64,000 nucleotides of DNA from Planctomycetota bacterium. Its GTDB lineage: Bacteria; Planctomycetota; UBA1135; GCA-002686595. The notes under the pieces were generated by a model. The model was not told the origin of the DNA, did no database searches, and saw only the letters and a list, made by a program, of their open reading frames with translations. The translations under genes and the position numbers were made by a program. Each line of letters starts with the position of its first letter. Positions within the stretch are counted from its first letter, which is position 1. This document shows, piece after piece, positions 19,289 through 35,692 of this stretch. The stretch is from positions 20,537-84,536 of the forward strand of contig JBBQNP010000002.1 of NCBI GenBank assembly GCA_038330085.1, read 5' to 3'.

Positions 19289-19621
19289 GGACTTCTTCAG
19301 CCGTCCGAGCGCGTCGTCCCACAGACGTGAGATGCGATCCAAGTACGCGCGAGCATCCTCGAGCCGCTTCTCCTCCAAGCTCCAAATCCTCTCTCGCCCA
19401 CGCCGCTCGTCGCGCACGAGACCAGCCCTTGCGAGCACGTCCAGGTGCTTCGTGATGGCCTGACGCGACGAGGGCGATTTCGCGCTCAAGTGCGTGATCG
19501 ACTGTGGACCACCCGATCCCAACCTTGTGATCAGCCTGATCCGCGTCTCGTCACCCAACGCGGCGAACAGCGGCGCCGCGTCACGAACCTGTGCGACCGC
19601 AAGTGCGCTAGCCGGAGACAT
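19277..19621 (-). CDS. ArsR/SmtB family transcriptional regulator
   Basis: ORF 19277..19621(-). It has a wHTH core (LFAALGDETRIRLITRLGSGGPQSITHLSAKSPSSRQAITKHLDVLARAGLV). It overlaps the upstream SRPBCC gene by 14 nt. Confidence 0.85.
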   Translation of the reverse strand: MSPASALAVAQVRDAAPLFAALGDETRIRLITRLGSGGPQSITHLSAKSPSSRQAITKHLDVLARAGLVRDERRGRERIWSLEEKRLEDARAYLDRISRLWDDALGRLKKSVEK

Positions 19622-20066
19622 GTTTCTTGATGTTCCCGAGCTGACCGCTCCACCCGCCCGAGTTCATCCGGAACGCCTCATCCCGACGATTCGGCGGCAA
19701 CCGGTCGAATCCCGACTCCACCACCCTCACCAGCGTGCCCCCGCCTTCTTCCACCAGCGTGAACTCCACCAACGTCATCTCCTCCTTCGAGTAGTCCGCC
19801 TTCCGGTCGACCGCGTACGGATGCCATCGATACGCAAACTCCGTCTCCGGCTTTACCCGCTCGACCACCACTTCGAGCTTCACGCCCTCGTAACTCTTGA
19901 TCGTGAGGCTGCCGATCACCTTCTTGCCCACCACGAACTCTCCGTCTATCACGACGCCGAACCATTCTCCAAACGCCTTGGCGTTCGTGAGCGCGCGCCA
20001 AACCTTCGATCGGGGCGCCTGGATCTGGATCTGTTTCTCGATGCGGTCAGTGCTTGTCTTCGTCAT
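19608..20066 (-). CDS. SRPBCC superfamily protein (Aha1/activator-of-Hsp90-ATPase-like domain)
   Basis: ORF 19608..20105(-), with the start taken at MTKTSTDRIEKQIQIQAPRSKVWRALT (ATG 20066). This is the typical ArsR-associated SRPBCC partner. Confidence 0.75.
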   Translation of the reverse strand: MTKTSTDRIEKQIQIQAPRSKVWRALTNAKAFGEWFGVVIDGEFVVGKKVIGSLTIKSYEGVKLEVVVERVKPETEFAYRWHPYAVDRKADYSKEEMTLVEFTLVEEGGGTLVRVVESGFDRLPPNRRDEAFRMNSGGWSGQLGNIKKHVSG

Positions 20067-20101
20067 CCGCTTACTCCATCTCACCTTGGCAGCGACCATT
20101 C

Positions 20102-20157
20102 GCAACCATATGGTTGCATATTACCCAGCCCGCCACAACAGGCAACCCCCCGGTTGC
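20102..20157. promoter_or_regulatory. Two operator-like palindromes sharing half-site GCAACC (candidate ArsR sites)
   Basis: GCAACCATATGGTTGC (20102-20117) is a perfect 16-mer. GCAACCccccGGTTGC lies at 20142-20157. They sit 36-90 nt upstream of the SRPBCC-ArsR operon start. Confidence 0.5.
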
Positions 20158-20464
20158 ACATTCCCCTCGACCTCGCCGATCTCATCGAGGCCACGCACCA
20201 CGCCGCTACCTCATGTCCAATCCGGCCCATGTCCACTCGGGCCCACGTCCAATCCGAAACGATCCAGCCAGAGCCCGCAACCTCACACCGAGCAGCGGGG
20301 TTGTCGGGAAACGCGCGGTGCCAGGCACCCGTCGCGGGAGTACCCGCGGCGGGTTCCAGGCACCACGCGTTCCGCGGGCCGCCGGTGCGTGAACGGCACT
20401 GAGGCCAGGCTGGTCGTTCCCACGCCGCGCGAAAGAGACGGAGCGAGAGATTCCGCATCGGGCG

Positions 20465-20490
20465 CATCCATTCCGAGCTCTGCGTCGAAT
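20465..20490 (+). promoter_or_regulatory. ECF-type promoter candidate GCATCC-N16-CGAAT upstream of the SDR-DUF2867 gene
   Basis: CATCC lies at 20465-20469, followed by a 16-nt spacer and CGAAT at 20486-20490. The same bipartite motif recurs at 22563-22588(-), 22691-22716(+) and 26431-26456(+), and more weakly at 23818-23843(+). Confidence 0.55.
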
Positions 20491-20603
20491 TCCCATTCGG
20501 AGCGCGATTTCGATCGCTGCGTGCGGTCGAACCCTGAGCCGGCCCATTCGCGTCCAACCGCGGGCCCACTGCAGACTATGTGCGCGGCCACGAACGACCG
20601 ACC

Positions 20604-22109
20604 ATGGAATCGTCCCTTCCCCTCCCGTCCGAGCACCGCACGATCCTTTTGACGGGATCGACCGGGTACATCGGCGGAAAGTTGAGGCGCGCGTTCGAAG
20701 AACGCTGCCTCGCGCTGCGCTGCATGGCGCGGCGTCCGGAGTGTCTGGTCGGGCAGGTCGGGCCGCGCACCGAGGTGGTGCGTGGGGACGTGCTCGATCC
20801 CGACTCTTTGTCGACCTCGCTGCAGGGAGTGGACGTCGCTTACTACCTGATCCACTCGATGGGTTCCGACGGCGATTTCGTCGAGAACGATCGCCGCGGC
20901 GCGCGCAACTTCGCACAAGCGGCTCGACGTTGCGGCGTGCGACGCATCGTGTACCTCGGCGGCCTCGGCGATCCTGACGCTGATCTGTCCCCGCATCTGC
21001 GCAGCCGTCACGAAGTGGGCGAGATGCTGCGCTCGACGGGCGTGCCCGTCCTCGAGCTGCGCGCATCGATCGTCCTCGGATCCGGGAGCCTTTCCTTCGA
21101 GTTGATCCGCAGCTTGGTCGAGCGGCTCGCCGTCATGATCACGCCGCGTTGGGTCGACGTCCTGGCGCAGCCGATCGGGATCGACGACCTCGTGGAGTAT
21201 CTGATCGAGTCGCTCGACGTGAACATCGATGGGAGCCGCGTCGTGGAAATCGGCGGACCCGACGTCGTTTCCTACGGCAGCTTGATGCGCGAGTACGCGA
21301 ACCAACGCGGCCTCCGTCGCTACATGATCCGCGTTCCCGTGCTCACGCCGCGGCTGTCGAGCTTGTGGTTGGGTTTGGTGACGCCGCTGTACGCGCGCGT
21401 CGGGCGCAAGCTGATCGAGAGCATCCGACATCCGTCGGTGATCCGCGATCCCTCCGCCATGACGCTGTTCAAGGTACGACCGCGTTCGGTGAGCGCCGCC
21501 ATCGCGAGCGCCCTGCGGGAAGACGAGACGGAACCCACGCGTTGGAGCGACGCGCTCTCTTCGGGGGGTGAGCCCAGGAGTTGGGCCGGCGTCCGCTTCG
21601 GCAACCGCCTGGTCGATTCGCGCACGGTCGTCGTCCCTGTGTCCCCCTCCCGCGCGTTCGACCCGATCCGGCGGATCGGCGGACGCAGCGGGTGGTACGG
21701 GCTCACCTGGCTCTGGTCGGTGCGCGGCTTCCTCGACCTCCTGGTCGGAGGCGTCGGTGTGCGTCGCGGCCGAGCTCATCCCGAACGTGTGCGCGTCGGC
21801 GATGCGCTCGACTTCTGGCGTGTCGAGGAGTTCGAACCCGATCGGCGCATGAAGTTGTTCGCGGAGATGAAGGTGCCTGGACGCGCCTGGCTCGAGTTCG
21901 AGGTCGAGGGCAACGCCGAGAGTTCGACGATTCGGCAGACCGCGATCTTCGACCCGGTGGGGTTGAGCGGTCTTCTCTACTGGTACGGGATCTACCCTCT
22001 GCACGCGCTGGTGTTCGCACGCATGCTGAAGGGCATTGCGAAACGCGCCGTTCGCGACGGTGATCCGGTTCAGCGCCCCATCAACGCTTCGAGCCGTAGC
22101 GTGCGGTGA
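20604..22109 (+). CDS. NAD(P)-binding SDR/NmrA-like oxidoreductase fused to a DUF2867-like C-terminal domain
   Basis: ORF 20580..22109(+), with the start probably at MESSLPLP (20604). It has a Rossmann motif (ILLTGSTGYIGGKL). The C-terminal half (DFWRVEEFEPDRRMKLFAEMKVPGRAWLEFEV) is typical of DUF2867. Confidence 0.8.
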   Translation: MESSLPLPSEHRTILLTGSTGYIGGKLRRAFEERCLALRCMARRPECLVGQVGPRTEVVRGDVLDPDSLSTSLQGVDVAYYLIHSMGSDGDFVENDRRGARNFAQAARRCGVRRIVYLGGLGDPDADLSPHLRSRHEVGEMLRSTGVPVLELRASIVLGSGSLSFELIRSLVERLAVMITPRWVDVLAQPIGIDDLVEYLIESLDVNIDGSRVVEIGGPDVVSYGSLMREYANQRGLRRYMIRVPVLTPRLSSLWLGLVTPLYARVGRKLIESIRHPSVIRDPSAMTLFKVRPRSVSAAIASALREDETEPTRWSDALSSGGEPRSWAGVRFGNRLVDSRTVVVPVSPSRAFDPIRRIGGRSGWYGLTWLWSVRGFLDLLVGGVGVRRGRAHPERVRVGDALDFWRVEEFEPDRRMKLFAEMKVPGRAWLEFEVEGNAESSTIRQTAIFDPVGLSGLLYWYGIYPLHALVFARMLKGIAKRAVRDGDPVQRPINASSRSVR

Positions 22110-22516
22110 TCGAAGATGCGCTTGACATCCGGTCGAACGAGGAACCGGTTGACGAGCGCGCCGCCCAGCACCGAGTAGCGCACGTTGTCGCTGACGCGCG
22201 TGCGATCGCCCAAGTCCTCGAAGCGGTGTTCGTGCACCCAGCGTCGATACGGCCCGCTCAACTGCTCGTCGACGAAGCGGTGTGGCGGATCCCATTCGCG
22301 GATGAGGCTGCGCCAGCGCAACGGCAAGCCGCGCACGCGCAGGCGATATTCGATCAGCGTGCCCTCACCGATCGTCGGCGTCGAGCTCGACACGATGTGG
22401 AAGTGGAGCCAGGGCGGCGTGATCGCTTCCAGGTTGTGAGGGTCCGAAAAGAAGCGGAACACCTCCTCGCGCTTGCGCGGGACAACTTGTTCGCGCTCGA
22501 TCGAGAACTCTTTCAT
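22070..22516 (-). CDS. SRPBCC superfamily protein (polyketide cyclase/dehydrase-like)
   Basis: ORF 22070..22669(-), with the start taken at MKEFSIEREQVVPRKREEVFRFFSDPHNLEAITPPWL (ATG 22516). It converges on and overlaps the SDR gene by 40 nt. Confidence 0.75.
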   Translation of the reverse strand: MKEFSIEREQVVPRKREEVFRFFSDPHNLEAITPPWLHFHIVSSSTPTIGEGTLIEYRLRVRGLPLRWRSLIREWDPPHRFVDEQLSGPYRRWVHEHRFEDLGDRTRVSDNVRYSVLGGALVNRFLVRPDVKRIFDHRTLRLEALMGR

Positions 22517-22562
22517 CGTCGTCAGGGCGTGCCGGCAGCGATGCCTGGCGACGCGGTGAGCT

Positions 22563-22588
22563 GTTCGATCGGGAAACGAATTTGGATG
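22563..22588 (-). promoter_or_regulatory. ECF-type promoter candidate (minus strand GCATCC-N16-CGAAC) upstream of the SRPBCC gene
   Basis: The plus strand reads GTTCG(22563-67)-N16-GGATG(22584-88). The -10 element lies 46 nt upstream of ATG 22516. Confidence 0.55.
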
Positions 22589-22690
22589 CAGGCGTGTCGG
22601 AGTTTTTCCACCTGCGTCCAAGAACGAGATGGGATGCGCGCCATCCGTCATTCGCAGGTTGACCGACAACCACTTTGGTTACGCCGGCTG

Positions 22691-22716
22691 CATCCATTCC
22701 GTCTTCCGCTGCGAAC
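22691..22716 (+). promoter_or_regulatory. ECF-type promoter candidate GCATCC-N16-CGAAC upstream of the fasciclin gene
   Basis: CATCC lies at 22691-95, followed by a 16-nt spacer and CGAAC at 22712-16, 57 nt upstream of ATG 22774. The extended -35 GCATCCATTCCG is identical to the one at 20464. Confidence 0.55.
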
Positions 22717-22773
22717 ACATGTGCACGCCGCATTCAAATCTGGATCGGACACATCATCTCCAAGGAAGCTGAC

Positions 22774-23736
22774 ATGCATCTCACAGCACTCTTCAACCGC
22801 AAATTGGTCAACTGCAATCTGGTCTTCTGCACCCTGGCGCTGGCTTCGGCCTGCGCCGGGACTGGGCAAGACGCGAAGGCCTCGGCCAAGGCCATGCCGA
22901 CGGCCGTCGCGTCCGACACCAAGGACATCGTCGACACCGCGGTCGCCGCGGGCTCGTTCAAGACGCTTGCCGCCGCGCTGAAGGCCGCGGACCTGGTCGA
23001 CACGCTGAAGGGCAAGGGCCCGTTCACCGTCTTCGCTCCCACCGACGCAGCGTTCGCCGCGTTGCCCAAGGGCACGCTCGAAACCCTGCTCGAGCCGAAG
23101 AACAAGGCCACGCTGCAAGCGATCCTCACCTACCACGTCGTGTCGGGAAACATCGCCGCCTCTGACGTCGTCAAGATGAGCCAGGCGGTGACCGTCAACG
23201 GTCAACGCATCGACATCAGCGTCTCGGACGATCTCGTCCACGTCGACAAAGCCAAGGTCACGCAGACCGACATCCGCTGCTCGAACGGCATCATCCACGT
23301 GATCGACGCCGTGATGCTCCCGAGCACGAACGACATCGTCGCCACCGCCATGCAGGCCGGTCAGTTCAAGACGCTGGCCGCAGCACTACAAGCAGCCGGT
23401 CTCGTCGAGGCGCTGAAGGGCAAGGGCCCGTTCACGGTCTTCGCGCCGACGGACGAAGCGTTCGCGCGGCTGCCGGCCGCCACGCTCGCGGATCTCATGA
23501 AGCCCGAGAACAAGGATCGCCTCACCGCCATTCTAGAGTACCACGTCGTCTCCGGCCGCGTCTTCTCCGACGCCGCTGCCGCGGGCGCCACGGTCGAGAC
23601 CCTGCAGGGTGGCAAGCTGACGACTCGCAGCGAAAAGGGTGAGGTGTTCGTGAACGGGGCCCGCGTCGTGAAAGCGGACATCGACGCGTCGAACGGGGTC
23701 ATCCACGTGATCGATTCGGTCCTGTTGCCGAAGTAA
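22774..23736 (+). CDS. Secreted lipoprotein with two fasciclin (FAS1) domains (Mpt70/Mpt83-like)
   Basis: ORF 22675..23736(+), with the start taken at MHLTALFN (ATG 22774), preceded by an AAGGAAG RBS. It has a lipobox (LALASAC). The FAS1 block occurs twice (FKTLAAAL...[15 protein letters not shown]...L...YHVV.G ... NG.IHVID.V.LP). Confidence 0.9.
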
Positions 23737-23817
23737 GCGCCGGCGGATGGAGAGTTCAGAGATGCGCTGGCGCACCCGCGCACCTCTGGCTCTTCATGCG
23801 CGCAGACGGCCGGGAAG

Positions 23818-23843
23818 CAGTCCGCGTTCGATGCTGAGCGAAC
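23818..23843 (+). promoter_or_regulatory. Weaker variant of the same ECF-type motif upstream of the sigma gene (autoregulation candidate)
   Basis: The sequence is CAGTCC...CGAAC (CGAAC at 23839-43). The -35 matches only 3/5 with an N15/N16 ambiguity. It lies 50 nt upstream of ATG 23894. Confidence 0.3.
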
Positions 23844-23893
23844 TAGAGACTGCTTCCCTGTCCCTCCGCGCTACACTGCGCGCTCGACATCGC

Positions 23894-24460
23894 ATGAGCG
23901 ACGTCCAGCCGAACACAGACTCACTCCTGCCGCGCGTGGCGCGTGGAGACGCAGAAGCTGTGCAGGCCTGCATCGCGCGCTACGGCTCGCTCGTGTGGTC
24001 GCTGGCCCGCCGCATGTCGCGCGACGTTGCCGGGCTCGAAGACCTCGTGCAGGAGATCTTCATCGACATCTGGAAGAGCGCCGATCGCTTCGATCCGAGC
24101 CAGTCTTCCGAGACTTCTTTCATCGCGACGATCGCACGACGCCGCGTCATCGACCAGCATCGACGCACCGCGCGCGCGCAAAAGCTCGAGACCATCGACG
24201 AGAGCAGCGCCGTCGCCGAGGAGCCGGGCTTTGCGCAAGTGGACCTCGGTGACGAAGCGCGGCGCGCGAACGCAGCGCTCGACCAACTCAGACCCGAACA
24301 ACGGCGCGTGATCTTGATGTCAGTGGTCGACGGCTTGACCCATGCGGAGATCGTCACGGCAACCGGATTTCCTCTGGGCACGGTGAAGAGTCACATCCGT
24401 CGCGGTCTCGAGGAGACGGTGCGACTTCTGCGCCCCACGGCCGGAGGAGAGCAGCCGTGA
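23894..24460 (+). CDS. sigK: ECF (group IV) RNA polymerase sigma factor, SigK-like by partner and context
   Basis: ORF 23747..24460(+), with the start taken at MSDVQPNTD (ATG 23894). It has sigma-70 region 2 (DLVQEIFIDIWKSADRFD) and region 4 (RRVILMSVVDGLTHAEIVTATGFPLGTVKSHIRRG). Its stop overlaps the GTG of an RskA-type anti-sigma gene. The symbol is assigned by context only. Confidence 0.7.
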   Translation: MSDVQPNTDSLLPRVARGDAEAVQACIARYGSLVWSLARRMSRDVAGLEDLVQEIFIDIWKSADRFDPSQSSETSFIATIARRRVIDQHRRTARAQKLETIDESSAVAEEPGFAQVDLGDEARRANAALDQLRPEQRRVILMSVVDGLTHAEIVTATGFPLGTVKSHIRRGLEETVRLLRPTAGGEQP

Positions 24461-25248
24461 GCACGCGGATCATCGAATGGGACGAGCGCACGTTCGACTT
24501 GGCGCTCGAGGAGCTGACCACTGGGCTCGGGCACGAGGAACGTGACGAGCTCGTCGAGAGCGTGGATGCGGACGAGCTGCGATTGCTCGAGCAATGCGTC
24601 GTGGCGCTCGACCTCGCGGGGCTGCAACGGCTCGACGAACCGCCGGCCGAGTTGATGCTGCGGATCGAGCGCGATGCGCGCGCTCACTTCGCGCTTGCGC
24701 GCCACGCCGACCGGACGGTTCCGATTGCACCGCGTCGTGCGAAGTCGGTCATCAAGGTCAGAACAGCCATCCTGACGGGAACAAGCCTGCTGGCTGCGGC
24801 GCTCCTTCTCGCGTTCCTGTGGCTTCGCGGTGCAACGGATCGGACGAAGGAGCCCGCGGACCGCCGCGACATCCTGCTGGCCGACGCGCGAGACGTCGTG
24901 CGCGCGCCTTGGGTTGCGACCGCGGATCCGTTTGCGGGGGGAGTTCGCGGCGACGTCGTGTGGAGCGGAACACGTCAAGAGGGCTACTTGAGCTTCGCGG
25001 GCCTACCGCGCAACGACCCGCGCGCGAACCAGTACCAGCTGTGGATCTTCGACAAGTCGCGCGCCGAATGGGACGCCAAGCCCGTCGACGGCGGAGTGTT
25101 CGACGTGGGACCCGGTGGAAACGTCGTCGTGCCGATCGACGCCAAGCTCGAGATCCGTCAGCCGGCGCTCTTCGCCGTGACGCTCGAAGCTCCCGGTGGG
25201 GTCGTGGTCTCGAAGCGCGAGCACTTGCTGGCGACCGCCACGCCTTGA
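24457..25248 (+). CDS. rskA: Anti-sigma-K factor RskA-like membrane protein
   Basis: ORF 24457..25248(+), GTG start overlapping the sigma stop (GTGA). It has one TM segment (ILTGTSLLAAALLLAFLWL). The extracytoplasmic RskA signature is present (GYLSFAGLPRNDPRANQYQLWIFD ... FAVTLEAPGGVVVS). Confidence 0.75.
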   Translation: MSTRIIEWDERTFDLALEELTTGLGHEERDELVESVDADELRLLEQCVVALDLAGLQRLDEPPAELMLRIERDARAHFALARHADRTVPIAPRRAKSVIKVRTAILTGTSLLAAALLLAFLWLRGATDRTKEPADRRDILLADARDVVRAPWVATADPFAGGVRGDVVWSGTRQEGYLSFAGLPRNDPRANQYQLWIFDKSRAEWDAKPVDGGVFDVGPGGNVVVPIDAKLEIRQPALFAVTLEAPGGVVVSKREHLLATATP

Positions 25249-25303
25249 CGCCGGGTCGCGGTCTCGCCGGCTTCGTCAGAGCGCACGAAGTCAGGAGCGA
25301 ATG

Positions 25304-26350
25304 TCACGCGCCGACCAGCCGGCGACCGGTCTCGACGGCTTCACCAGCCGAAGCGGCATGGCCGTCCGCGCCGACGCGCTGCCACAGTCCGCTTCCATGC
25401 GCGAACGCCGAACCGCCTACGAGCACGCGCTGTCCGGGCCGCTCGGCACGCAAGGCCTCGATCGTGCGCGCAACCGTCGCACGCTGCTCGTCGAGCGTCG
25501 CGCTCAGCGCCACGAGGTCGGCATCGAACCGCGCGACGAACCCGACCAGGTCCGCGATCGGCACGTCCGCTCCGAGGCAGATCGACCGCCAGCCGTCCAG
25601 TTCGAAGAACGCAGCCACGACCAGGGCACCGAAATCGTGCGCATCGCGCGCGACGGAAGCGACGACGACCGTGCGCCCGTTCGACGGCGCGAGCGGAGCT
25701 TGAGCGACGACGCGCGCCATGATCTTGCGCGTGACGATCGATCCGAAGTGCTCCTCGCCTACGCCGATCTCGCCCTGGTGCCAGCGCCGTCCGAGCTCGC
25801 GTTGCGCCGGCACGAGCACGTGCGTTAGCGCGTCGCGCACCGACAAGCGGCCAGGTCCGATCGCGTCGAGCACGAGTGCGACCGCGCGACGCTCGTCCCC
25901 CGCGATGAGCGCTTCCACGTATGCGTGCGCCAGCCCACCGTGCGGACTGTTTCCCGAAAGCTCGCTGCGCGGCGGCTGGGCTGGGCGGGTCAGCTCCTGC
26001 GCTGCGCGCTCGAAGTACGCGGGCATCGGGGACCACGCCGCTTTCGGGAGAGACTCTTCGAGCACATCGCGCAGATGAGAGAGCTCCGCCTGCAGCATGG
26101 TCGCGGGCATCGCACGCGCGGCGAACGCGTCGCGCGACCACACGACATGCGCGGCGAACAGCTCAGGCGCTTCGTCCTCCAGCGCGGCAGCGAGGCTCTC
26201 GATCTGCCGACGAACGTGCGCGCGCCACGCTTCGAACGCGCCCGATGCGCCGACCTGTGGATCGGATTCCATCCATCGGCTGGTCGCCAAGCCGGCGAAG
26301 CCGTCGGCGCTCGCGCGCAAGAGGGTCGGTGTGAATGCGCTCTGGCCCAT
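25304..26350 (-). CDS. Stand-alone cobalamin (B12)-binding protein, CarH/AerR-like light-sensor module without a DNA-binding domain
   Basis: This is the C-terminal 348 aa of ORF 25304..27208(-), with the start taken at MGQSAFTPTLL (ATG 26350). The part of the ORF upstream of this is antisense to DUF1295. It has a B12-binding_2 helical bundle with Wx9EH (W190...E200-H201, nt 25748-25783). It also has a Rossmann B12 domain with DxHxxG (D236-A-H-D-F-G241, nt 25628-25645). The ~135-aa N-terminal domain is unrecognised. Confidence 0.75.
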   Translation of the reverse strand: MGQSAFTPTLLRASADGFAGLATSRWMESDPQVGASGAFEAWRAHVRRQIESLAAALEDEAPELFAAHVVWSRDAFAARAMPATMLQAELSHLRDVLEESLPKAAWSPMPAYFERAAQELTRPAQPPRSELSGNSPHGGLAHAYVEALIAGDERRAVALVLDAIGPGRLSVRDALTHVLVPAQRELGRRWHQGEIGVGEEHFGSIVTRKIMARVVAQAPLAPSNGRTVVVASVARDAHDFGALVVAAFFELDGWRSICLGADVPIADLVGFVARFDADLVALSATLDEQRATVARTIEALRAERPGQRVLVGGSAFAHGSGLWQRVGADGHAASAGEAVETGRRLVGA

Positions 26351-26416
26351 GGTGTTGCAGGCTTCACCGTGCCCTAAGCCCGTGCGGGCGTCAACGGCGG
26401 GCGGCCGCGAAGCTTT

Positions 26417-27286
26417 TTGACGGACGGGCGCATCCAGGTCGGAGCTTCGCGCGAATGCCAGCGCGTGACCACCTCCGATGCTCTGCTGCCGCTCTTCGGG
26501 CTGTGCGTCCTCGCCCTCGTGATGCTGGCCGGGTGGGCCCGGCAACGGGCGACGCGCAATGCCGGGATCGTCGATGTCCTCTGGGCTGCCGGGCTCGGCG
26601 GGCTGGCGTTGCTGTACGCCGCGCTCGCTTCGGGTTGGTTGCCGAGGCGCGTGCTCGTGGCGGTGCTGGTGGGCGCGTGGTCGTTGCGCCTGACGCTGCA
26701 CCTCGCAGCACGTGTGCGGCGCGAGCGCGAGGACGGTCGGTACGCCGAGATGCGCGCGCGCCTCGGACAGCGTTTCGATCGCACCATGCTGTGGTTCTTC
26801 CAGGCCCAAGCTCTGCTGGCGGTGCTGTTGTCGTTGGCGTTCCTGGTTCCGTGCGCGGCGAACAACACGGGCTTCACCGCGCTCGACGTGCTCGCCGTTG
26901 TTGTTTGGATCGTCGCACTCGTCGGCGAGAGCATCGCCGACCGCCAGCTGCGCGATTGGCGCGCCGATCCGTCGCACGCGGGCCGCACTTGCCGCGCTGG
27001 ACTGTGGCGGTATTCGCGCCACCCCAACTACTTCTTCGAGTGGCTGCACTGGGTCGCGTACGCGTTCCTCGCGACCGGGCTCTCGTACGGCTGGGTCGTT
27101 TGGCTCGCACCGGCAGCGATGTTGTTCCTGATCGTGCGCGTCACGGGCATTCCTCCGACCGAGGCGCAAGCGATCCGAAGCCGCGGCGACGACTACCGCG
27201 CGTACCAAGCGACGACGAGCGCGTTCTTCCCGGCGCCGCCGAAAGTCCAGTCGGTTCGATCAACCCACGTGAAGCAGGCCCCATGA
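26417..27286 (+). CDS. DUF1295 family membrane protein (steroid-5-alpha-reductase / ICMT-like fold)
   Basis: ORF 26417..27286(+), TTG start. The true start may be GTG 26465 (see the promoter entry). It is multi-TM and has the C-terminal signature GLWRYSRHPNYFFEWLHWVAYA. Its stop overlaps the next ATG (ATGA at 27283-86). Confidence 0.8.
   Translation: MTDGRIQVGASRECQRVTTSDALLPLFGLCVLALVMLAGWARQRATRNAGIVDVLWAAGLGGLALLYAALASGWLPRRVLVAVLVGAWSLRLTLHLAARVRREREDGRYAEMRARLGQRFDRTMLWFFQAQALLAVLLSLAFLVPCAANNTGFTALDVLAVVVWIVALVGESIADRQLRDWRADPSHAGRTCRAGLWRYSRHPNYFFEWLHWVAYAFLATGLSYGWVVWLAPAAMLFLIVRVTGIPPTEAQAIRSRGDDYRAYQATTSAFFPAPPKVQSVRSTHVKQAP
26431..26456 (+). promoter_or_regulatory. ECF-type promoter candidate GCATCC-N16-CGAAT upstream of / inside the 5' end of the DUF1295 ORF
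   Basis: CATCC lies at 26431-35, followed by a 16-nt spacer and CGAAT at 26452-56. This places the -10 downstream of the TTG (26417) that opens the longest ORF and 9 nt upstream of an in-frame GTG (26465). Confidence 0.5.
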
Positions 27287-28353
27287 AGCTCGCGAACCGT
27301 CTCGTCGACCAAGGCTTCGTCCCCGAAGTGCTGCTGCGCAGCGGCATTCGCAGCTTGTTGCGCAGGAGGTTGCGCGACGAGAGTGCGCGCTTCGGTCACG
27401 ACACCGAAAGCGTGATGCGCACGTGGGTGGAGCACATGCGCCAAAGCCCGATCGCGTTGGTGCCGGAGCTCGCCAACGAGCAGCACTACGAGGTGCCGGC
27501 GGAGTTCTTCCGGCTCGTGCTCGGCCGGCGCCTCAAGTACAGCAGCGCGTACTTCGCGAGCAGCACCGACACGCTCGATCAGGCCGAAGAAACCATGTTG
27601 GCGCTGACGGCCGAGCGCGCGGGCCTCGAAGACGGTCAGGACGTGCTCGAGCTGGGTTGCGGATGGGGCTCGCTCACGCTGTGGCTGGCCGAGCGACATC
27701 CGAAGAGCCGCATCGTCGCCGTCTCCAACTCGGCTACACAGCGCGAGCACATTCTGGAGCGGGCGAGCGAACGCAGCCTTCGCAACGTCACGGTCCTCAC
27801 CGCCGACATGAACGATCTCAAGATCGACGGGCAGTTCGATCGCGTCGTGTCGGTCGAGATGTTCGAGCACATGCGCAACTGGGAGCGGCTCCTGGGACGC
27901 GTCGCCAGATGGCTGCGGCATGACGGTCGGCTCTTCCTGCATGTTTTCGCGCACCAACGCTTCGCGTACGCATTCGAGGAACGCGACGACTCGGACTGGA
28001 TGAGCCGGCACTTCTTCAGCGGCGGGATGATGCCCTGCCATGGAATGGTCGAGCGCCTGGATGTGCCGTTCGAGAGCGTCGCGAGCTGGATCGTTCCTGG
28101 AACTCATTACGCGCGCACCGCGGAGGCCTGGTTGCAAAACCTCGAAGCGCGGCGCGCGGCGGTGCTCGAGCTCTTCGAACGCACGTACGGAAGCGATCGA
28201 GCCGAGCTCTGGTACCAGCGTTGGCGCGTGTTCTTCCTGGCGTGTGCCGAGCTCTTCGGCTTTCGGGGCGGTTCGGAGTGGATCGTCTCGCACGCACTGT
28301 TGCGTCCGCTGTCGTCCCAGATCCTGCTCGACTCGCAGAAGCGCGCGCGATGA
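27283..28353 (+). CDS. Cyclopropane-fatty-acyl-phospholipid synthase family SAM-dependent methyltransferase (copy 1, short form)
   Basis: This lies within ORF 26335..28353(+), with the start taken at MKLANRLVDQG (ATG 27283). It has the CFA/mycolic-acid methyltransferase motifs (HYEVPAEFFRLVLGRRLKYSSAYF; VLELGCGWGSLTLWLA; SVEMFEHM). Confidence 0.85.
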   Translation: MKLANRLVDQGFVPEVLLRSGIRSLLRRRLRDESARFGHDTESVMRTWVEHMRQSPIALVPELANEQHYEVPAEFFRLVLGRRLKYSSAYFASSTDTLDQAEETMLALTAERAGLEDGQDVLELGCGWGSLTLWLAERHPKSRIVAVSNSATQREHILERASERSLRNVTVLTADMNDLKIDGQFDRVVSVEMFEHMRNWERLLGRVARWLRHDGRLFLHVFAHQRFAYAFEERDDSDWMSRHFFSGGMMPCHGMVERLDVPFESVASWIVPGTHYARTAEAWLQNLEARRAAVLELFERTYGSDRAELWYQRWRVFFLACAELFGFRGGSEWIVSHALLRPLSSQILLDSQKRAR

Positions 28354-29603
28354 AGATCGCCGTCGTCGGGACCGGTGTCGCTGGGCTGGTCGCAGCGCAC
28401 AGGCTGCATGGCGAGCACGACGTCACCGTGTACGAGGCGGGAGATCGGATCGGCGGTCACGTCAACACCGTGGACGTCGCGACCGACACGGGCACCGTGG
28501 CGATCGACACCGGCTTCATCGTCTTCAACCGCAAGACCTACCCGCGCTTCTGTGCACTGCTCGAGGAACTCGGCGTCGCTTCTCAGCCAAGCGAGATGAG
28601 CTTCTCCGTTTCCTGCGAGAAAAACGGCCTCGAATACAACGGAACGTCGTTCGACGGACTCCTGGCGCAGCGCACGAACGCACTGCGACCGGCATTTTGG
28701 CGCATGGTCCGCGACATCCTGCGCTTCTACCGCGAAGCACCCGCGCTGCTGGCCGTCGATGACGACGACCTGACTCTCGGCACGTTCCTGGAGAGCCGAC
28801 GCTACTCGCGCGAGTTCATCGAGCATCACCTGGTGCCGATGGCCGCGGCGGTTTGGTCGTCGGATCCCCGCGACGTGCGCGCGATGCCGGTGCGCTTCCT
28901 GGTGCAGTTCTTCCACAACCACGGCTTCCTGCAGGTCGACGATCGTCCGCAGTGGCTGGTCGTGCGCGGCGGTTCGCGCCAATACGTCGACGCACTGGTC
29001 GCTCCGTTTCGGGATCGGATCCGGCTACGCACTCCGGTCGTGCGCGTCGAGCGCAGCTTCGACAGCGTGCGACTTTGGACGAAGTCCGGAGGCGACGAGA
29101 CGTACGACCGCGTCGTCCTGGCGACGCACGCTGACGAGAGCCTGCGCATGCTGTCCGACGCGACGCGGCTCGAGCGCGAAGTGCTGGGCTCGTTCGGATG
29201 GCAGCGCAACGAGGTCGTGTTGCACACCGACACAGCGCTCATGCCGCGCAAGCGCCGCGCCTGGGCGAGTTGGAACTACCACTTGGTGGATCCGCCTTCG
29301 AGCCTGCCCACGGTGACGTACTGGATGAACAACCTGCAGGGCCTCACCGCGGATCAGCAGTACCTGGTCACGTTGAACCGCACGGCGGCCATCCGTCCCG
29401 ACAAAGTGTTGAGAAGCTTCGTCTACCACCACCCGGTCTTCTCGAGCGCGACCCTGCGCGCCCAACGTCTGCACGCTGACATCGACGGCGCAGGCGGCGT
29501 CCACTTCTGTGGCGCGTACTGGGGCAACGGCTTTCACGAGGACGGTGTCGCCAGCGCGCATGCTGTCCTCGCGCACGTCGAACGAACGGTGCTGGCGAGA
29601 TGA
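28350..29603 (+). CDS. FAD/NAD(P)-binding oxidoreductase (amine-oxidase / phytoene-desaturase-like)
   Basis: This lies within ORF 28221..29603(+), with the start taken at MKIAVVGTGVAGLVAAHRL (ATG 28350, ATGA overlap). It has a dinucleotide-binding GxGxxG followed by YEAGDRIGGH. Confidence 0.85.
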   Translation: MKIAVVGTGVAGLVAAHRLHGEHDVTVYEAGDRIGGHVNTVDVATDTGTVAIDTGFIVFNRKTYPRFCALLEELGVASQPSEMSFSVSCEKNGLEYNGTSFDGLLAQRTNALRPAFWRMVRDILRFYREAPALLAVDDDDLTLGTFLESRRYSREFIEHHLVPMAAAVWSSDPRDVRAMPVRFLVQFFHNHGFLQVDDRPQWLVVRGGSRQYVDALVAPFRDRIRLRTPVVRVERSFDSVRLWTKSGGDETYDRVVLATHADESLRMLSDATRLEREVLGSFGWQRNEVVLHTDTALMPRKRRAWASWNYHLVDPPSSLPTVTYWMNNLQGLTADQQYLVTLNRTAAIRPDKVLRSFVYHHPVFSSATLRAQRLHADIDGAGGVHFCGAYWGNGFHEDGVASAHAVLAHVERTVLAR

Positions 29604-29659
29604 AGAGCGAGATGAAGAGTGCGCTGAAGAGTGCGATGAAAAGTGCGATGAGGAGCGCG
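29600..29659 (+). repeat. 12-nt tandem repeat x5 at the 5' end of the DUF1365 gene
   Basis: The units are ATGAAGAGCGAG, ATGAAGAGTGCG, CTGAAGAGTGCG, ATGAAAAGTGCG and ATGAGGAGCGCG. Four of the five units begin with an in-frame ATG. Confidence 0.8.
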
Positions 29660-30421
29660 ATCTACGAGGGCACCGTCTACCACGACCGCCGCGAGCCGCG
29701 GCCGCATGCGTTCGAGCACCGGCTGTTCATGATGTACATCGACCTCGACGAGCTGCCCGAGCTCTTCCAAGGTCGCTGGCTGTGGTCCGCGAGCCGAAAG
29801 GCGCTCGCGTGGTTTCGGCGAGACGACTACCTGGATCCGCAAACCGCCGATTTGCGCGAGGCCGTGCGCGCGCGCGTGCAGGACGAGCTCGGACGCAGGC
29901 CGGCGGGCGCAGTGCGCGTGCTCACCCACCTGCGGACGTTCGGCTACGTCTTCAATCCGGTCACGTTCTACTACTGCTTCGACGCGCGCGACGAGCTCGA
30001 CGCCATCGTCGCCGAGATCACCAACACGCCGTGGGGCGAGCGTCATGCCTACGTTCTCGACGCGCGCGGCGAGCAGGGAACGGCCGAGATCACCTGGCGC
30101 TTTCCGAAGGCGTTTCACGTCTCGCCCTTTCACGCGATGGACGTCGAGTACGAGTGGCGCTTCAGCGCGCCCGGCGCAGAGCTCGGGGTGCACATGACGA
30201 ACCTCGCTGCCGGCCGGCCGATGTTCCACGCCGGCTTCGCCGCGCATCGACGTGCGATCACGCGTGCGGGCCTGGCGTGGGTGCTCGTGCGTCATCCACT
30301 GCACACGTTGCGCTTGCACGCGGCCATCTACTGGCAGGCTGCGCGCCTTTTGCTGAAGCGCGTGCCCACGCACGCGCATCCACAGCATTCCGTCGTTCCA
30401 ACAGGGAGCCGGGCATCATGA
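29600..30421 (+). CDS. DUF1365 family protein
   Basis: ORF 29600..30421(+), ATGA overlap with the preceding gene. The core is SAIYEGTVYHDRREPRPHAFEHRLFMMYIDLDEL ... FGYVFNPVTFYYC. It has an unusual N-terminal (M/L)(K/R)S(A/E) x5 repeat. Confidence 0.85.
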   Translation: MKSEMKSALKSAMKSAMRSAIYEGTVYHDRREPRPHAFEHRLFMMYIDLDELPELFQGRWLWSASRKALAWFRRDDYLDPQTADLREAVRARVQDELGRRPAGAVRVLTHLRTFGYVFNPVTFYYCFDARDELDAIVAEITNTPWGERHAYVLDARGEQGTAEITWRFPKAFHVSPFHAMDVEYEWRFSAPGAELGVHMTNLAAGRPMFHAGFAAHRRAITRAGLAWVLVRHPLHTLRLHAAIYWQAARLLLKRVPTHAHPQHSVVPTGSRAS

Positions 30422-31704
30422 GCGACGAAGGTTTGATCGCCGGACTGACTGGTGCGCGTGCAGTGGTTGCCCGGGGCGAGCGCGTCGCACGTCCTTCCAT
30501 CGCGGCGCGGCTCGTGTTTTCACGGCTCGCTCGATTGTCGTCGGGTTCACTGATCGTGCACGAGGGCGGACGAAGGCACGTGTTCGGGAGCCCGGATCCC
30601 AGCCTTCCGCCGGCGATCGTGCACGTTCACGACGCGCGCTTCTGGTCCGCGGTCGCGAAGCGCGGCACCGTCGGCGCGGGAGAGGCGTTCGCGCAGGGCT
30701 GGTGGTCTAGCGAGGACATCGTCGCGCTCGTGCGTCTCTTCGTTCGCAATCGGGATTCGATGACGGCCCTCGAGGGCGGGCTCGCGCGGCTCTCGCGTCC
30801 CGTGCTCGATTTGTTCCATGCGCTCCGCCGCAACACGCGCAAGGGCAGCCGCGCCAACATCTCGGCGCACTACGACCTCTCGAACGAGTTCTTCGCGCTG
30901 TTCCTGGACGACACGATGACCTATTCGTGCGGCCTCTTCGAACGGCCGGAGTCGAGCTTGCGTGAAGCGTCTCTGGCCAAGATCGACCGCATCTGCGCTC
31001 ACCTGCAGCTCTCATCCGCCGACCACCTGCTCGAAATCGGCACCGGTTGGGGTGCGCTTGCGATCCACGCCGCGCGCGAATACGGCTGTCGCGTGACGAC
31101 GACGACGATCTCGCGGCGGCAACACGATGTGGCCGCGCAGCGCATTCGCGAGGCCGGCCTCGAGGGGCGCGTGACGCTCTTGTTCGAGGACTACCGCAAC
31201 CTCGAAGGCACCTACGACAAGCTCGTCTCCGTCGAGATGATCGAGGCAATCGGCCATCAGTACTTCGACGAGTTCTTTCGGCGCTGCTCGGCGTTGTTGC
31301 GCCCCGAAGGGCGGATGTGCCTGCAGTCGATCACGATCGCGGATCAGCACTATGCGTCCGCGCTGCGCTCGGTCGACTTCATCCAGCGCCACATCTTCCC
31401 GGGCGCGTGCATCCCTTCGGTGACGGCGTTGTGCTCGTCGATGACGGCTTCGAGCGACCTGAGGCTCGTGCACATGGATGACATCGGCCCGCACTACGCG
31501 CGCACCCTCTCCGAATGGCGGCAGAACCTGCTCGCTCATCGCGACGAAGCGCGTGCCCTGGGGTTCGGCGACGAGTTGCTGAGGCTGTGGGACTTCTACT
31601 TCGGCTACTGCCAAGGGGGGTTGGAGGAAAGGCAGCTCAGCACGGTGCAGATGGTGCTCGAGCGTCCGCTGGCACGGCCCGCATTGTTTCCTTCCGCGAA
31701 TTGA
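30418..31704 (+). CDS. Cyclopropane-fatty-acyl-phospholipid synthase family methyltransferase (copy 2, long form)
   Basis: This lies within ORF 29509..31704(+), with the start taken at MSDEGLIAGLTG (ATG 30418, ATGA overlap). Motifs present are ISAHYDLSNEFFALFLDDTMTYSCGLF, LLEIGTGWGALAIHAA, SVEMIEAIGHQY and FYFGYCQGGLEERQL. Confidence 0.9.
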   Translation: MSDEGLIAGLTGARAVVARGERVARPSIAARLVFSRLARLSSGSLIVHEGGRRHVFGSPDPSLPPAIVHVHDARFWSAVAKRGTVGAGEAFAQGWWSSEDIVALVRLFVRNRDSMTALEGGLARLSRPVLDLFHALRRNTRKGSRANISAHYDLSNEFFALFLDDTMTYSCGLFERPESSLREASLAKIDRICAHLQLSSADHLLEIGTGWGALAIHAAREYGCRVTTTTISRRQHDVAAQRIREAGLEGRVTLLFEDYRNLEGTYDKLVSVEMIEAIGHQYFDEFFRRCSALLRPEGRMCLQSITIADQHYASALRSVDFIQRHIFPGACIPSVTALCSSMTASSDLRLVHMDDIGPHYARTLSEWRQNLLAHRDEARALGFGDELLRLWDFYFGYCQGGLEERQLSTVQMVLERPLARPALFPSAN

Positions 31705-31819
31705 ACGCTCGAAACACGCGAGAACGATGGTGTCGTGTCGTCAGGATCCGCGCTCGCACGCGCGCGATGATCGAACTGATTCGTACTGAGTGGACGACCG
31801 TGCCGTGACCGCCGCGACG

Positions 31820-32353
31820 ATGAAGAAGTTCGCGAACTTCGCCCTGTACCAAGGCGCCTGGTTCGTCGCCGTCTCGTGTGCCGCGCGAGGCGACGTGTGG
31901 ACGGGGCCGGCAGCGATGCTGGTCGTGGTGATCGTGCACCTGGCGCTCGTGCCCGATCGCATGCGCGAGCTGCGCTTTCTGTTTGTCGTCGGCCTTTTCG
32001 GAACGATCGCGGACAGCGCGCTCGCCGCACTCGGCGTCCTCGCGTATCCGAGTTCGCACGCGAGCTGGACGAGCATCGTCGCGCCACCGTGGATCATCGC
32101 GCTGTGGATCGGGTTCGCGACGTTGCCGCGCTTCTCGCTCGCTTGGCTCGCACACAGGCCCGCGCTCGCCGCGCTGCTCGGCGCCGTGGGTGGCCCGCTG
32201 TCCTATGCCGCGGGTATCCGCCTGGGCGCCGTCGCGGTCGGCTCGCAACCCGTGCTGACGTGGCTTGCGCTGTCGGCGGAGTACGCGCTCGCCACACCTT
32301 TCCTGCTGTGGCTCGCGCCGCGGGCGGACACACGCGAAAAGGCCGCTGTTTAG
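31820..32353 (+). CDS. DUF2878 family membrane protein
   Basis: ORF 31790..32353(+), with the start probably at MKKFANFALYQGAWFVAV (31820). It has 4-5 TM segments. This family commonly ends CFA-synthase/DUF1365 clusters. Confidence 0.7.
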   Translation: MKKFANFALYQGAWFVAVSCAARGDVWTGPAAMLVVVIVHLALVPDRMRELRFLFVVGLFGTIADSALAALGVLAYPSSHASWTSIVAPPWIIALWIGFATLPRFSLAWLAHRPALAALLGAVGGPLSYAAGIRLGAVAVGSQPVLTWLALSAEYALATPFLLWLAPRADTREKAAV

Positions 32354-32442
32354 GCAATTCTTAGGAAGTCGACAGCGACCATTTAGGGTGCCCTGAAGCG
32401 GTCCGTGCCCGATGTTGAGCGTCTCCGAAAGAGACGGCTCAC

Positions 32443-34442: not shown

Positions 34443-34457
34443 GAGAGAACCACTTCC

Positions 34458-35203: not shown

Positions 35204-35692
35204 TTGCTCACCTCGATCCCTTCCGAGCTCGTCGCATTCCTCGAGTCCGGCATCTCGATCCTCGTCGGATCGCGGGATGCGCACCTGCGTCCCGAGTTCG
35301 CGCGCGGCATCGGCGCGCGCATTCATCCCGGCGGAGGCGAGTTGACCGTGTGGATCCCGTCGACGACCGCGGAGCGCACGCTCGCCAACGTGCGCGACAA
35401 CGGCCGCCTGGCCGTGTGCTTCGCCGCGATCGATCACCGCTCGTTCCAGTTCAAAGGCCGCACGATCGAAGTGCGCGACGCGCACCCTGACGAGCGCGCG
35501 TCGTTGGAGCGTTACCGCGCCGCGATCGCGCAACACTGGGGTCAGGTCGGGATGCCGCCGCGGCTGACGCACCGCATGATCGTGTGGCCCGCTCAGGCGC
35601 TGACGTTGCAGATCGAATCCGTGTTCCAACAGACGCCCGGCCCAGGAGCCGGCGCGGCGTTGGGCCGGCCGCGGCGCGGGAAGAAGTCATGA
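35204..35692 (+). CDS. Pyridoxamine-5'-phosphate-oxidase-like (FMN-binding split-barrel) family protein
   Basis: ORF 35204..35692(+), TTG start. It shows a split-barrel pattern (ISILVGSRDAHLRPEFARGIGARI ... NVRDNGRLAVCFA ... FQFKGRT). Its stop overlaps the next ATG (ATGA at 35689-92). Confidence 0.55.
   Translation: MLTSIPSELVAFLESGISILVGSRDAHLRPEFARGIGARIHPGGGELTVWIPSTTAERTLANVRDNGRLAVCFAAIDHRSFQFKGRTIEVRDAHPDERASLERYRAAIAQHWGQVGMPPRLTHRMIVWPAQALTLQIESVFQQTPGPGAGAALGRPRRGKKS

Follow-up and report, generated by a model that had tools for sequence, protein, structure and literature searches.

A predicted stand-alone photocobilin-like B12 photoreceptor linked across bacterial phyla to SigK/RskA-type sigma factors and furan-fatty-acid-type lipid genes

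The stretch of DNA discussed here, which we call the window, comprises 64,000 nucleotides of contig JBBQNP010000002.1 (positions 20,537 to 84,536, forward strand) from the Planctomycetota bacterium assembly GCA_038330085.1. It contains a gene of 348 codons plus stop for a predicted cobalamin (B12) photoreceptor, and the name Pcob is used for both the receptor and its gene. On one side Pcob converges with the gene for an RskA-type anti-sigma factor, with only 55 bp between the two stop codons; this gene in turn belongs to an operon with a fasciclin protein and an extracytoplasmic function (ECF) sigma factor. On the other side Pcob is transcribed divergently from a six-gene lipid operon that begins with DUF1295. 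The coordinates of all features are collected in Table 1.

Table 1. Features of the Pcob locus (positions in the window; the ECF motif is GCATCC-N16-CGAA; CFA, cyclopropane fatty acid; ORF, open reading frame; HMM, hidden Markov model; AF2, AlphaFold2)
Feature	Position	Strand	Evidence
ECF motif (20464-20489) and NAD(P)-binding (NAD_binding_10)/DUF2867 gene (20580-22109)	20464-22109	+	motif, Pfam
SRPBCC/polyketide-cyclase-like gene (ATG ~22516) and ECF motif (22564-22589)	22070-22589	-	motif, Pfam
ECF motif (22690-22715) and fasciclin gene (22774-23736), head of the sigma/anti-sigma operon	22690-23736	+	Pfam Fasciclin 8.5e-84
ECF sigma factor, SigK/SigE-like (alternative ATG 23894)	23747-24460	+	Pfam Sigma70_r2, r4_2, ECF
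RskA-type membrane anti-sigma factor	24457-25248	+	Pfam RskA_C E=2.4e-12
Pcob gene, predicted stand-alone photocobilin-like B12 photoreceptor, 348 aa	25304-26350	-	ORF/translation, Pfam, homologues, AF2
Rossmann-type B12-binding domain, aa 227-338	25337-25672	-	Pfam E=6.1e-19
Four-helix-bundle B12-binding_2 domain, aa 141-213	25712-25930	-	Pfam E=3.6e-14
Photoglobin (phycobiliprotein-like globin) domain, aa 1-135	25946-26350	-	profile, Pfam, AF2 fold matches
W42-R-A-H45 pocket positions	26216-26227	-	HMM alignments to 8j2w, 8j2y, 8ddy_B
Candidate housekeeping-type promoter of Pcob, TTGACG-N17-CACGGT	26366-26394	-	ends 15 nt before ATG
ECF motif of the DUF1295/lipid operon	26430-26455	+	exact match; conserved in related loci
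Lipid operon, six genes	26465-32353	+	Pfam, gene starts, 4-nt (ATGA) overlaps at 27283/27286, 28350/28353, 29600/29603, 30418/30421
DUF1295	26465-27286	+	lipid operon gene 1
CFA-synthase family	27283-28353	+	lipid operon gene 2
UfaD-like FAD amine-oxidase fold	28350-29603	+	lipid operon gene 3
UfaO-like DUF1365	29600-30421	+	lipid operon gene 4
CFA-synthase family, second	30418-31704	+	lipid operon gene 5
DUF2878	31790-32353	+	lipid operon gene 6

The C-terminal part of Pcob consists of two B12 domains, both of which exceed the curated Pfam cut-offs. The helical B12-binding_2 domain holds a GxxW motif and the Wx9EH signature (WHQGEIGVGEEH, aa 190-201, nt 25748-25783) with the pairs W190-H191 and E200-H201, while the B12-binding domain holds DxHxxG (DAHDFG, aa 236-241, nt 25628-25645) with the lower-axial His238, followed by G260xxxP264. 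The best sequence relatives with solved structures are CtMerR 8jbs (1e-24), the photocobilins 8j2w/8j2x/8j2y (~1e-19) and the Thermus CarH 5c8a (~1e-17); these top matches are all proven light-responsive cobalamin domains. AerR 7te2 (2.4e-8), methyltransferase corrinoid proteins and methionine synthase are far weaker matches. In a full-length AlphaFold2 (AF2) model based on 63 homologues (predicted local distance difference test, pLDDT, 94.9; predicted template-modelling score, pTM, 0.90) the B12 half superposes on the B12 modules of CarH, CtMerR and photocobilins with a root-mean-square deviation (rmsd) of 1.7-3 A, and of 1.7-1.8 A for 8j2w/8j2y.

The family comprises 87 homologues, mostly of ~348 aa. 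Among the 63 that were aligned, G187, W190, E200, H238, G260 and P264 are invariant, H201 is kept in 62 and the W-H191 pair in 55. In CarH the equivalent of His191 becomes the upper ligand in the light state (bis-His), and the Wx9EH residues hold the adenosyl group. Light-responsive cobalamin domains have been described by a signature of GxxW, EH and GxxxP together with the lower-axial His (PMC11796333). The GxxW...EH part of SignatureFinder (TtCarH W131, E141, H142) is found in Pcob as G187-R-R-W190 and E200-H201; in the GxxH/GxxxP part the Gly of GxxH is replaced by Arg235 (nt 25646-25648). This Gly, which in CtMerR touches the corrin via its main chain, is retained by 48 of the 63 family members, and the replacement by Arg is shared by the window protein and six close relatives.

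Could such a module serve in the dark, as a cobalamin, redox or corrinoid-carrier protein of the AerR/PpaA or "MtbC1" type that reports B12 status or oxidation? Source annotations label relatives of Pcob "methanogenic corrinoid protein MtbC1", and the weaker matches to AerR and corrinoid proteins, the Arg in GxxH and the loss of a bilin-binding Asp discussed below would agree with such a role. We nevertheless consider it improbable: Wx9EH and the W-H pair are conserved, the best matches are proven photoreceptors, no Mtb/Mta-type methyltransferase partner genes lie adjacent, and the neighbours are genes of a photo-oxidative-stress type.

The N-terminal domain is recognisable by profile and by fold. 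A single-sequence search of the PDB yields only a weak match of aa 50-99 to residues 269-318 of the photocobilin SasPcob. In contrast, a profile of 39 family N-termini matches the bilin-binding domains of SasPcob 8j2w (6.7e-11) and AbPcob 8j2y (2.6e-8) and next to these many allophycocyanin and phycocyanin subunits; 12 of the 39 individually match Pfam Phycobilisome. Since the domain order is permuted with respect to 8j2w, the full-length model matched solved structures with its B12 half only, and aa 1-135 were modelled and fold-searched separately. This model (pLDDT 93.7) matches allophycocyanins (query TM-score, TMq, 0.75-0.79), the biliverdin-binding smURFP and SasPcob 8j2w/x (0.67). The domain is thus the photoglobin of Schneider et al. 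2022, the same domain that binds biliverdin in the photocobilins described by Zhang et al. 2024. Pcob combines what defines both families, namely a CarH-like B12 module and a globin-like bilin domain in one compact unit, and a phycocyanin-related globin fused to B12-binding_2 plus B12-binding. The order photoglobin-then-B12 occurs in both publications (PMC8717448, PMC10979010), and one of the groups distinguished by Zhang et al. has its adenosylcobalamin (AdoCbl) domain at the C-terminal end. A whole-library profile search returned 2601 cluster representatives with a photoglobin domain; most of the best 150 are ~350 aa long and have the layout of Pcob.

Two other architectures were seen among the retrieved proteins. 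P0088, P0089 and P0091 (717-724 aa), which are among the best matches of the N-terminal profile, carry 5-7 tandem photoglobin domains; in P0088, the one of the three that was scanned with Pfam, no B12 domain was found. P0101 (560 aa) is a photoglobin-B12-GGDEF protein with the photoglobin at its N-terminus, a permuted counterpart of the diguanylate cyclase AbDPcob.

Pfam and NCBIfam scans find no helix-turn-helix (HTH), MerR or other DNA-binding domain in Pcob. The NCBIfam CarH equivalog model reaches 80.9 bits (cut-off 400) with an alignment confined to the B12 part, and membership in CarH/LitR was rejected given the missing MerR-type HTH and the globin fold of the N-terminus. Pcob is therefore best described as a stand-alone photocobilin-like receptor with a C-terminal CarH-type B12 module, predicted to bind cobalamin and to respond to light. 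An earlier sequence-only reading of this DNA had placed Wx9EH and DxHxxG exactly, and both fall inside genuine Pfam domains; it was also right about the missing DNA-binding domain. Its term "CarH-like photoreceptor module" holds for the B12 module; as a label for the protein it gives way to photocobilin-like, in view of the photoglobin N-terminus. The ~135 N-terminal residues that it had left unassigned now have an assignment.

What sets the family apart is the pocket of the photoglobin domain. In SasPcob, biliverdin is held mainly by Asp270, which contacts the A-C pyrrole rings, and Trp296 packs on the D ring (PMC10979010; the numbering of the PDB chain is 6 off that of the paper). SasPcob Trp296 corresponds to W71 of Pcob, present in 62 of 63 sequences, and the hydrophobic position in photoglobin helix 4 (L80) is likewise kept (F76 in Pcob; F/L/Y in 56 of 63). 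The other positions have changed: Trp42 aligns with the Cys that attaches the bilin in phycobiliproteins (Thr in SasPcob), and His45 takes the place of the Asp, that is, of SasPcob Asp270 and of D49 in photoglobin helix 3. Across the family, 52 of 63 sequences have Trp at the distal position and 53 of 63 have H/Q/Y/N/S/F at that of the Asp, with the canonical [C/S/..]xxD limited to the ten most distant sequences. Among the 244 photoglobin instances retrieved, two classes separate cleanly: 170 instances read W-x-x-(H/Q/N/S/Y...) and 64 read x-x-x-D. AbPcob, alone among the characterised proteins in having His in place of the key Asp, binds biliverdin weakly (PMC10979010), which makes bilin binding by the W-x-x-H subfamily doubtful. 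The Pcob subfamily has WxxH where bilin-binding domains have [C/S/T]xxD, a change that seems new with respect to the literature we searched, whose coverage is incomplete.

Turning to the neighbours, the features of a SigK/RskA-type pair are present: ECF regions 2 and 4 in the sigma factor, a co-transcribed anti-sigma factor with RskA_C, and a fasciclin (MPT70/83-like) target. The best NCBIfam matches of the sigma factor, PRK13919 and SigK PRK09646, stay under their cut-offs, and the SigK subfamily model is not reached (114 bits, cut-off 226). The start of the anti-sigma gene overlaps the sigma stop by 4 nt. Its product has a single hydrophobic membrane segment (aa 105-123) followed by the RskA_C domain, which would be extracellular. 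No HxxxCxxC motif of zinc-binding anti-sigma (ZAS) factors was seen in its translation, and there is no ChrR-type cupin domain in its cytoplasmic part. In the lipid operon, ATGA overlaps at four junctions suggest translational coupling of the DUF1295, CFA-synthase, UfaD-like, UfaO-like and second CFA-synthase genes. The set known from furan-fatty-acid operons, Amino_oxidase, DUF1365 and two CMAS genes, is united in one operon, whose lipid product would, by gene content, be of the furan-fatty-acid type.

To gauge how stable this association is, we surveyed 81 loci from at least four phyla: 80 genome loci with relatives at 35-71% identity and one more locus. Loci were searched with a 23-sequence alignment, the 63-sequence alignment being too diverse for this purpose, and homologues of the neighbours were located by tblastn and iterated HMMs. 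Almost all related loci stem from metagenome-assembled genomes (MAGs), in which the gene calls are ORF-based approximations; those closest to the window are all Planctomycetota MAGs. Pcob has a sigma gene within 2 kb in 30 of the 81 loci; for RskA, at a distance of up to 1.5 kb, the count is 22, and for lipid genes, at up to 10 kb, it is 35. When sigma gene, lipid genes and promoter motif are taken together, 62 of the 81 loci carry at least one of the three links. The full gene order of the window is repeated in several Planctomycetota MAGs (L002-L006, L073) at 50-70% protein identity, and in about 20 Planctomycetota loci Pcob converges with RskA, sigma and fasciclin, including loci whose lipid operon is at another place.

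This survey refutes the notion, to which we give practically no weight, that Pcob came to lie here by chance, as an orphan gene newly inserted between unrelated transcription units. In the window alone that notion might have had some appeal, as Pcob converges with one unit, diverges from the other and has no promoter motif in common with either. The recurrence of the gene order at such protein distances, the share of linked loci and a uniform G+C content across the region all contradict it. From neighbourhood and motif conservation, then, Pcob is a conserved member of an ECF/lipid cluster, and the sequence-only reading had erred in calling it an inserted orphan.

However the genes are rearranged, the neighbour most regularly found directly beside Pcob is sigma or RskA. 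The order sigma-RskA-Pcob is found in a gammaproteobacterium (L081, Pfam-annotated) and Pcob-sigma-RskA in a Phycisphaeraceae MAG (L059); in a Krumholzibacteriota locus (L033) Pcob-sigma is followed by a short ORF that resembles an anti-sigma N-terminus by eye. The latter locus also has a second, more distant photoglobin-B12-like ORF (4383-5339, minus strand) ~5 kb from the sigma-linked copy. In four Chromatiales loci (L027, L032, L055, L069) the order is SnoaL-Pcob-sigma with an 8-bp gap, and no anti-sigma factor was detectable in these operons. Two kinds of candidate were rejected there: ORFs of 104-109 aa after the sigma gene, whose translations are of low complexity, and a ~320-aa upstream protein that has neither RskA similarity nor a membrane segment. 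Other neighbours in the Chromatiales loci are SnoaL_3, Cupin_8, META and one unknown protein. Overall, joint operons of Pcob and sigma were counted in six loci, spread over three phyla; four of these have only an 8-bp gap or an overlap, and four have no recognisable anti-sigma factor.

A different arrangement prevails in many Chromatiaceae, where an NAD(P)-binding gene is followed by Pcob and a cluster of CFA-synthase, DUF1365 and amine-oxidase genes lies 0.1-8 kb away. In L043, L046, L047, L049, L053, L057 and others (~9000-9900), the gene directly upstream on the same strand is NAD_binding_10/NmrA-like, and a GAATCC-N16-CGAA sequence sits in the short gap before Pcob; an NAD_binding_10/DUF2867 gene (20580-22109) is likewise part of the regulon in the window.

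This brings us to the promoters. The window has exactly four copies of GCATCC-N16-CGAA, one each before the NAD(P)-binding/DUF2867 gene, the SRPBCC gene, the fasciclin-sigma operon and the lipid operon (Table 1), positions that suggest a promoter motif of this sigma factor. The related loci contain 87 occurrences of GCATCC-N15-17-CGAA, about half of them (49) just upstream or at the start of cluster genes (fasciclin, sigma, DUF1295, SRPBCC, short-chain dehydrogenase/reductase (SDR), amine oxidase, Pcob); in 13 related loci the motif precedes fasciclin. No such motif was found upstream of Pcob on its own strand in the window, where searches allowing one mismatch at N16 or two at N15-17 gave none within 270 nt. 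Instead, a candidate housekeeping-type promoter lies there, separated by 35 bp, -35 element to -35 element, from the divergent ECF promoter. TTGAC[GT]-N17-CACGGT also precedes the orthologue in L001, L002 and L005, and an AAGGGT variant in L004 and L073, 15-25 nt before the start; strict sigma-70 consensus and terminator scans of 25100-26600 gave no match and leave this candidate uncalled. Elsewhere, G[AC]ATCC-N15-17-CGAA lies 23-142 nt upstream of Pcob on the same strand in 35 of 78 loci, where 0.9 would be expected in the 200-nt search span from an overall motif density that is itself already enriched. Expression of Pcob is probably constitutive in the clade of the window; in most Gammaproteobacteria, and in some Planctomycetota and Acidobacteriota, it probably depends on sigma. 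The sequence-only reading had correctly described the gene as divergent from the DUF1295 operon and free of the motif; its corollary that Pcob stands outside the ECF regulon is valid for the window's clade only. The linkage that it had proposed to look for is present in homologues from Planctomycetota, Gammaproteobacteria, Krumholzibacteriota and Acidobacteriota, which lie with the same ECF sigma, RskA or lipid cluster.

Some further observations concern the motif itself. The DUF1295 ORF as called mechanically begins with TTG at 26417 and would enclose the ECF motif; the true start is probably GTG 26465, ~10 nt past the -10 element, which would give a leaderless or near-leaderless mRNA. Pairs of opposite-strand ECF motifs whose -35 elements overlap in a palindrome (GGATGCATCC) occur in L015 (16859-16908), L016 (11684-11733) and L020 (17800-17849) and would form compact divergent ECF promoters ahead of DUF1295 and an unidentified gene. 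In the window, a second gene of the SRPBCC superfamily (AHSA1/polyketide-cyclase-like, 19608-20120, minus strand) lies just upstream of the cluster, with no exact ECF motif seen ahead of it.

A motif directly upstream of Pcob in 35 of 78 loci suggests that the receptor may be an output or feedback element of the regulon as well as an input. Taken further, Pcob could be an output only, which modulates some other partner by light, be it an NAD(P)-binding/SDR protein, a furan-fatty-acid enzyme or an unlinked regulator, and leaves sigma and anti-sigma alone. Besides the motif, the many Chromatiaceae with an NAD_binding_10/NmrA-like gene directly upstream and no sigma gene within 10 kb speak for this, as does the fact that modulation of an enzyme is the only demonstrated activity of stand-alone photocobilins. 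We regard it as a serious though on the whole unlikely explanation. In the window's clade the ECF motif is missing at Pcob and a conserved housekeeping-type promoter stands in its place, which would suit a sensor that is needed before induction; and both the constancy of sigma or RskA as neighbours and the six shared operons, four of them with an 8-bp gap or overlap, are harder to reconcile with an output.

How might a receptor that lacks an output domain act? CarH-type domains change their oligomeric state on photolysis. We tentatively favour a model, which we rate a little short of an even chance, in which Pcob is functionally part of a SigK/RskA-type ECF module for a photo-oxidative-stress lipid response and contacts sigma or anti-sigma. 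The module would drive G[C/A]ATCC-N16-CGAA promoters of fasciclin, SRPBCC and NAD(P)-binding proteins and of the furan-fatty-acid-type lipid operon. In the dark, cytoplasmic Pcob, with its photoglobin domain packed against the AdoCbl module, would be kept in a single oligomeric or conformational form. The Co-C bond would be broken by light (green, blue or UV), whereupon His191, beside Trp190, could become the upper axial ligand, as its counterpart does in CarH, with a change in quaternary structure. As Pcob has no output domain, this change would be read out via protein-protein contact, an idea already put forward in the sequence-only reading, most likely with the cytoplasmic sigma/anti-sigma complex, either the N-terminal domain of RskA or sigma itself. 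Light would then tune sigma release and the expression of lipid defence, before or alongside damage by singlet oxygen. The partner named here is provisional, as is the direction in which light would act. The choice of partner follows from the constant neighbourhood, from the six shared operons, four of which have no recognisable anti-sigma, and from the absence of a cytoplasmic sensing feature in RskA: with neither a ZAS motif nor a ChrR-type cupin, a cytoplasmic light sensor would fill the role of the missing sensor. There is precedent in stand-alone photocobilins that regulate a partner enzyme by protein-protein contact; one such protein has tentatively been tied to partner-switching sigma regulation (PMC10979010). 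The content of the regulon, which matches the singlet-oxygen regulon of R. sphaeroides, and the light induction of the same type of lipid cluster in Pseudomonas via a stand-alone photoreceptor, both described below, also speak for the model.

A bolder version, which we think possible but would not bet on, holds that the W-x-x-H photoglobin-B12 subfamily binds the ECF sigma factor directly, as a light-gated photoreceptor anti-sigma or anti-anti-sigma factor. In the SnoaL-Pcob-sigma operons of Chromatiales, Pcob would then be the only regulator of sigma, a task that it would share with RskA in the clade of the window; the photoglobin, having lost its bilin-binding Asp, would have been re-used as a docking surface.

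Several observations weigh against the proposal that Pcob informs the sigma/anti-sigma pair about light. First, 19 of the 81 loci have none of the three links, and their contexts are mixed (SDR, DUF427, LysR, DUF454, amine oxidase). Second, most Chromatiaceae loci have no sigma gene within 10 kb while Pcob has its own ECF-type promoter, an arrangement that fits an output of the regulon as well as an input. Third, no fusion of Pcob with a sigma or anti-sigma domain occurs among the longer relatives (a 180-aa extension in P0035 was set aside, as it looks like a mis-called start). On the side of the receptor, the Gly-to-Arg exchange in GxxH and the replacement of the bilin-binding Asp by His45, together with Trp42, count in the same direction, and a second chromophore may be absent. 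Finally, the motif is assigned to this sigma factor by position and conservation only.

Further genes complete the picture of the surroundings. The contig of the closest relative, L001 (71% identity), shows a different context: the genes on either side of Pcob encode a membrane protein of 418 aa and a protein of 800 aa with a C-terminus that resembles the catalase-peroxidase KatG by eye, and GCATCC-N16-CGAA lies just upstream of each flanking gene (3120-3145, 6777-6802); given this likeness, the regulon may also include a peroxidase. The end of that contig bears an apparent C-terminal fragment of an integrase (features at 1-307, 1498-2754, 4380-6802). Directly past the lipid operon of the window, on the same strand, follow a hemerythrin-domain protein (32419-33126) and a PSCyt1 Planctomycete cytochrome c protein (33111-34442), then, also on the plus strand, a cytochrome c (34443-35054) and a PNPOx-like plus GAF protein (35491-37083).

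To our knowledge, the triggering of RskA-type anti-sigma factors is poorly understood. The photoglobin-B12 architecture and stand-alone photocobilins that act by protein contact have already been published, and the discoverers of photocobilins call the function of the stand-alone members unclear (PMC10979010). In the literature searched, of incomplete coverage, we found no description of a B12 or photoglobin protein associated with ECF, RskA, DUF1365 or cyclopropane genes, in line with the sequence-only reading, which knew of no described B12 module in SigK/RskA loci. The conserved coupling of Pcob to a SigK/RskA-type ECF sigma factor and a furan-fatty-acid-type operon, as read from these genomes, thus appears new. 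It points, for stand-alone photocobilins, to a set of candidate partners (sigma or the cytoplasmic domain of RskA) and an output (G[C/A]ATCC-N16-CGAA promoters and lipid defence), and so offers an experimental handle on two questions, the function of these receptors and the trigger of RskA-type anti-sigma factors. If the proposal is true, a sigma factor in non-phototrophic bacteria would receive green or blue light as a direct input and the membranes would be armed against singlet oxygen in advance, and a compact B12-based optogenetic switch for sigma-dependent transcription might follow. Direct binding of sigma, if true, would add a new way in which ECF sigma factors are controlled and give stand-alone photocobilins their first assigned function. 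The exchange of Cys and Asp for Trp and His in the pocket also makes one ask whether the globin domain can still accommodate a bilin.

The nearest known systems are the photocobilins themselves (SasPcob 8J2W/8J2X, AbPcob/AbDPcob 8J2Y; PMC10979010). They share with Pcob the CarH-type AdoCbl domain (W-x-EH, E/DxH) and a globin-like bilin domain of five or six helices; they also include stand-alone forms that act by protein contact and a subgroup with a C-terminal B12 domain, and AbPcob shares the His at the key Asp position. Compared with the solved structures, Pcob has its domains in permuted order, and its pocket reads W-x-x-H rather than T-x-x-D. The published context of SasPcob is STAS/SpoIIE partner switching, that of Pcob an ECF sigma factor with RskA and a furan-fatty-acid-type operon. 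The photoglobin family (PMC8717448) likewise consists of non-haem, phycocyanin-related globins that are usually fused before or after B12-binding_2 plus B12-binding, with the helix-4 hydrophobic position retained in Pcob. The Pcob subfamily departs from it by the absence of D49 and by Trp at the distal Cys/Ser/Thr position, and the contexts given in that paper are two-component, one-component and SpoIIE systems, not ECF/RskA.

Among other B12 regulators, CarH/LitR of Thermus, Myxococcus and Bacillus share the cobalamin fold and the photochemical residues with Pcob, which, lacking their MerR DNA-binding domain, cannot act as a repressor. In Streptomyces, LitR-LitS also leads from a B12 photoreceptor to an ECF sigma response; LitR controls the transcription of litS, whereas control of sigma by Pcob would need protein contact. 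AerR/PpaA are stand-alone B12-domain proteins that act through a partner regulator as well. Their partner CrtJ/PpsR belongs to photosynthesis gene clusters, and no PpsR/CrtJ or photosynthesis genes are found among the annotated genes at 17.8-39.9 kb of the window; AerR/PpaA furthermore have no photoglobin domain and match Pcob much more weakly.

On the side of the output, the RpoE/ChrR singlet-oxygen regulon of R. sphaeroides includes UfaD (with the same FAD fold), UfaO (DUF1365) and the methylase UfaM, which make furan fatty acids (PMC7380195, on which the homology of the window's lipid genes to that operon rests). There, too, an ECF pair lies next to UfaD-like, DUF1365 (UfaO-like) and CFA-synthase-family genes, and the regulon contains fasciclin and SDR. 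The anti-sigma factor of the window is RskA-type and membrane-bound, in contrast to the zinc/cupin protein ChrR. In R. capsulatus this role falls to a SigK/RskA-like pair that is induced by photo-oxidative stress (PMC7380195, PMC7074977). The Rhodobacter systems have no photoreceptor gene, and their signal is singlet-oxygen damage. A photoreceptor does appear in Pseudomonas, where a stand-alone short light-oxygen-voltage (LOV) protein contacts a class II LitR and thereby allows light induction of a cluster of ufaM, FAD oxidoreductase and SDR (PMC9758184). This system shares with the proposed one a stand-alone photoreceptor, signalling by protein contact and the same type of lipid cluster; it differs in its flavin chromophore and in its partner, a MerR-type repressor in place of a sigma/anti-sigma pair.

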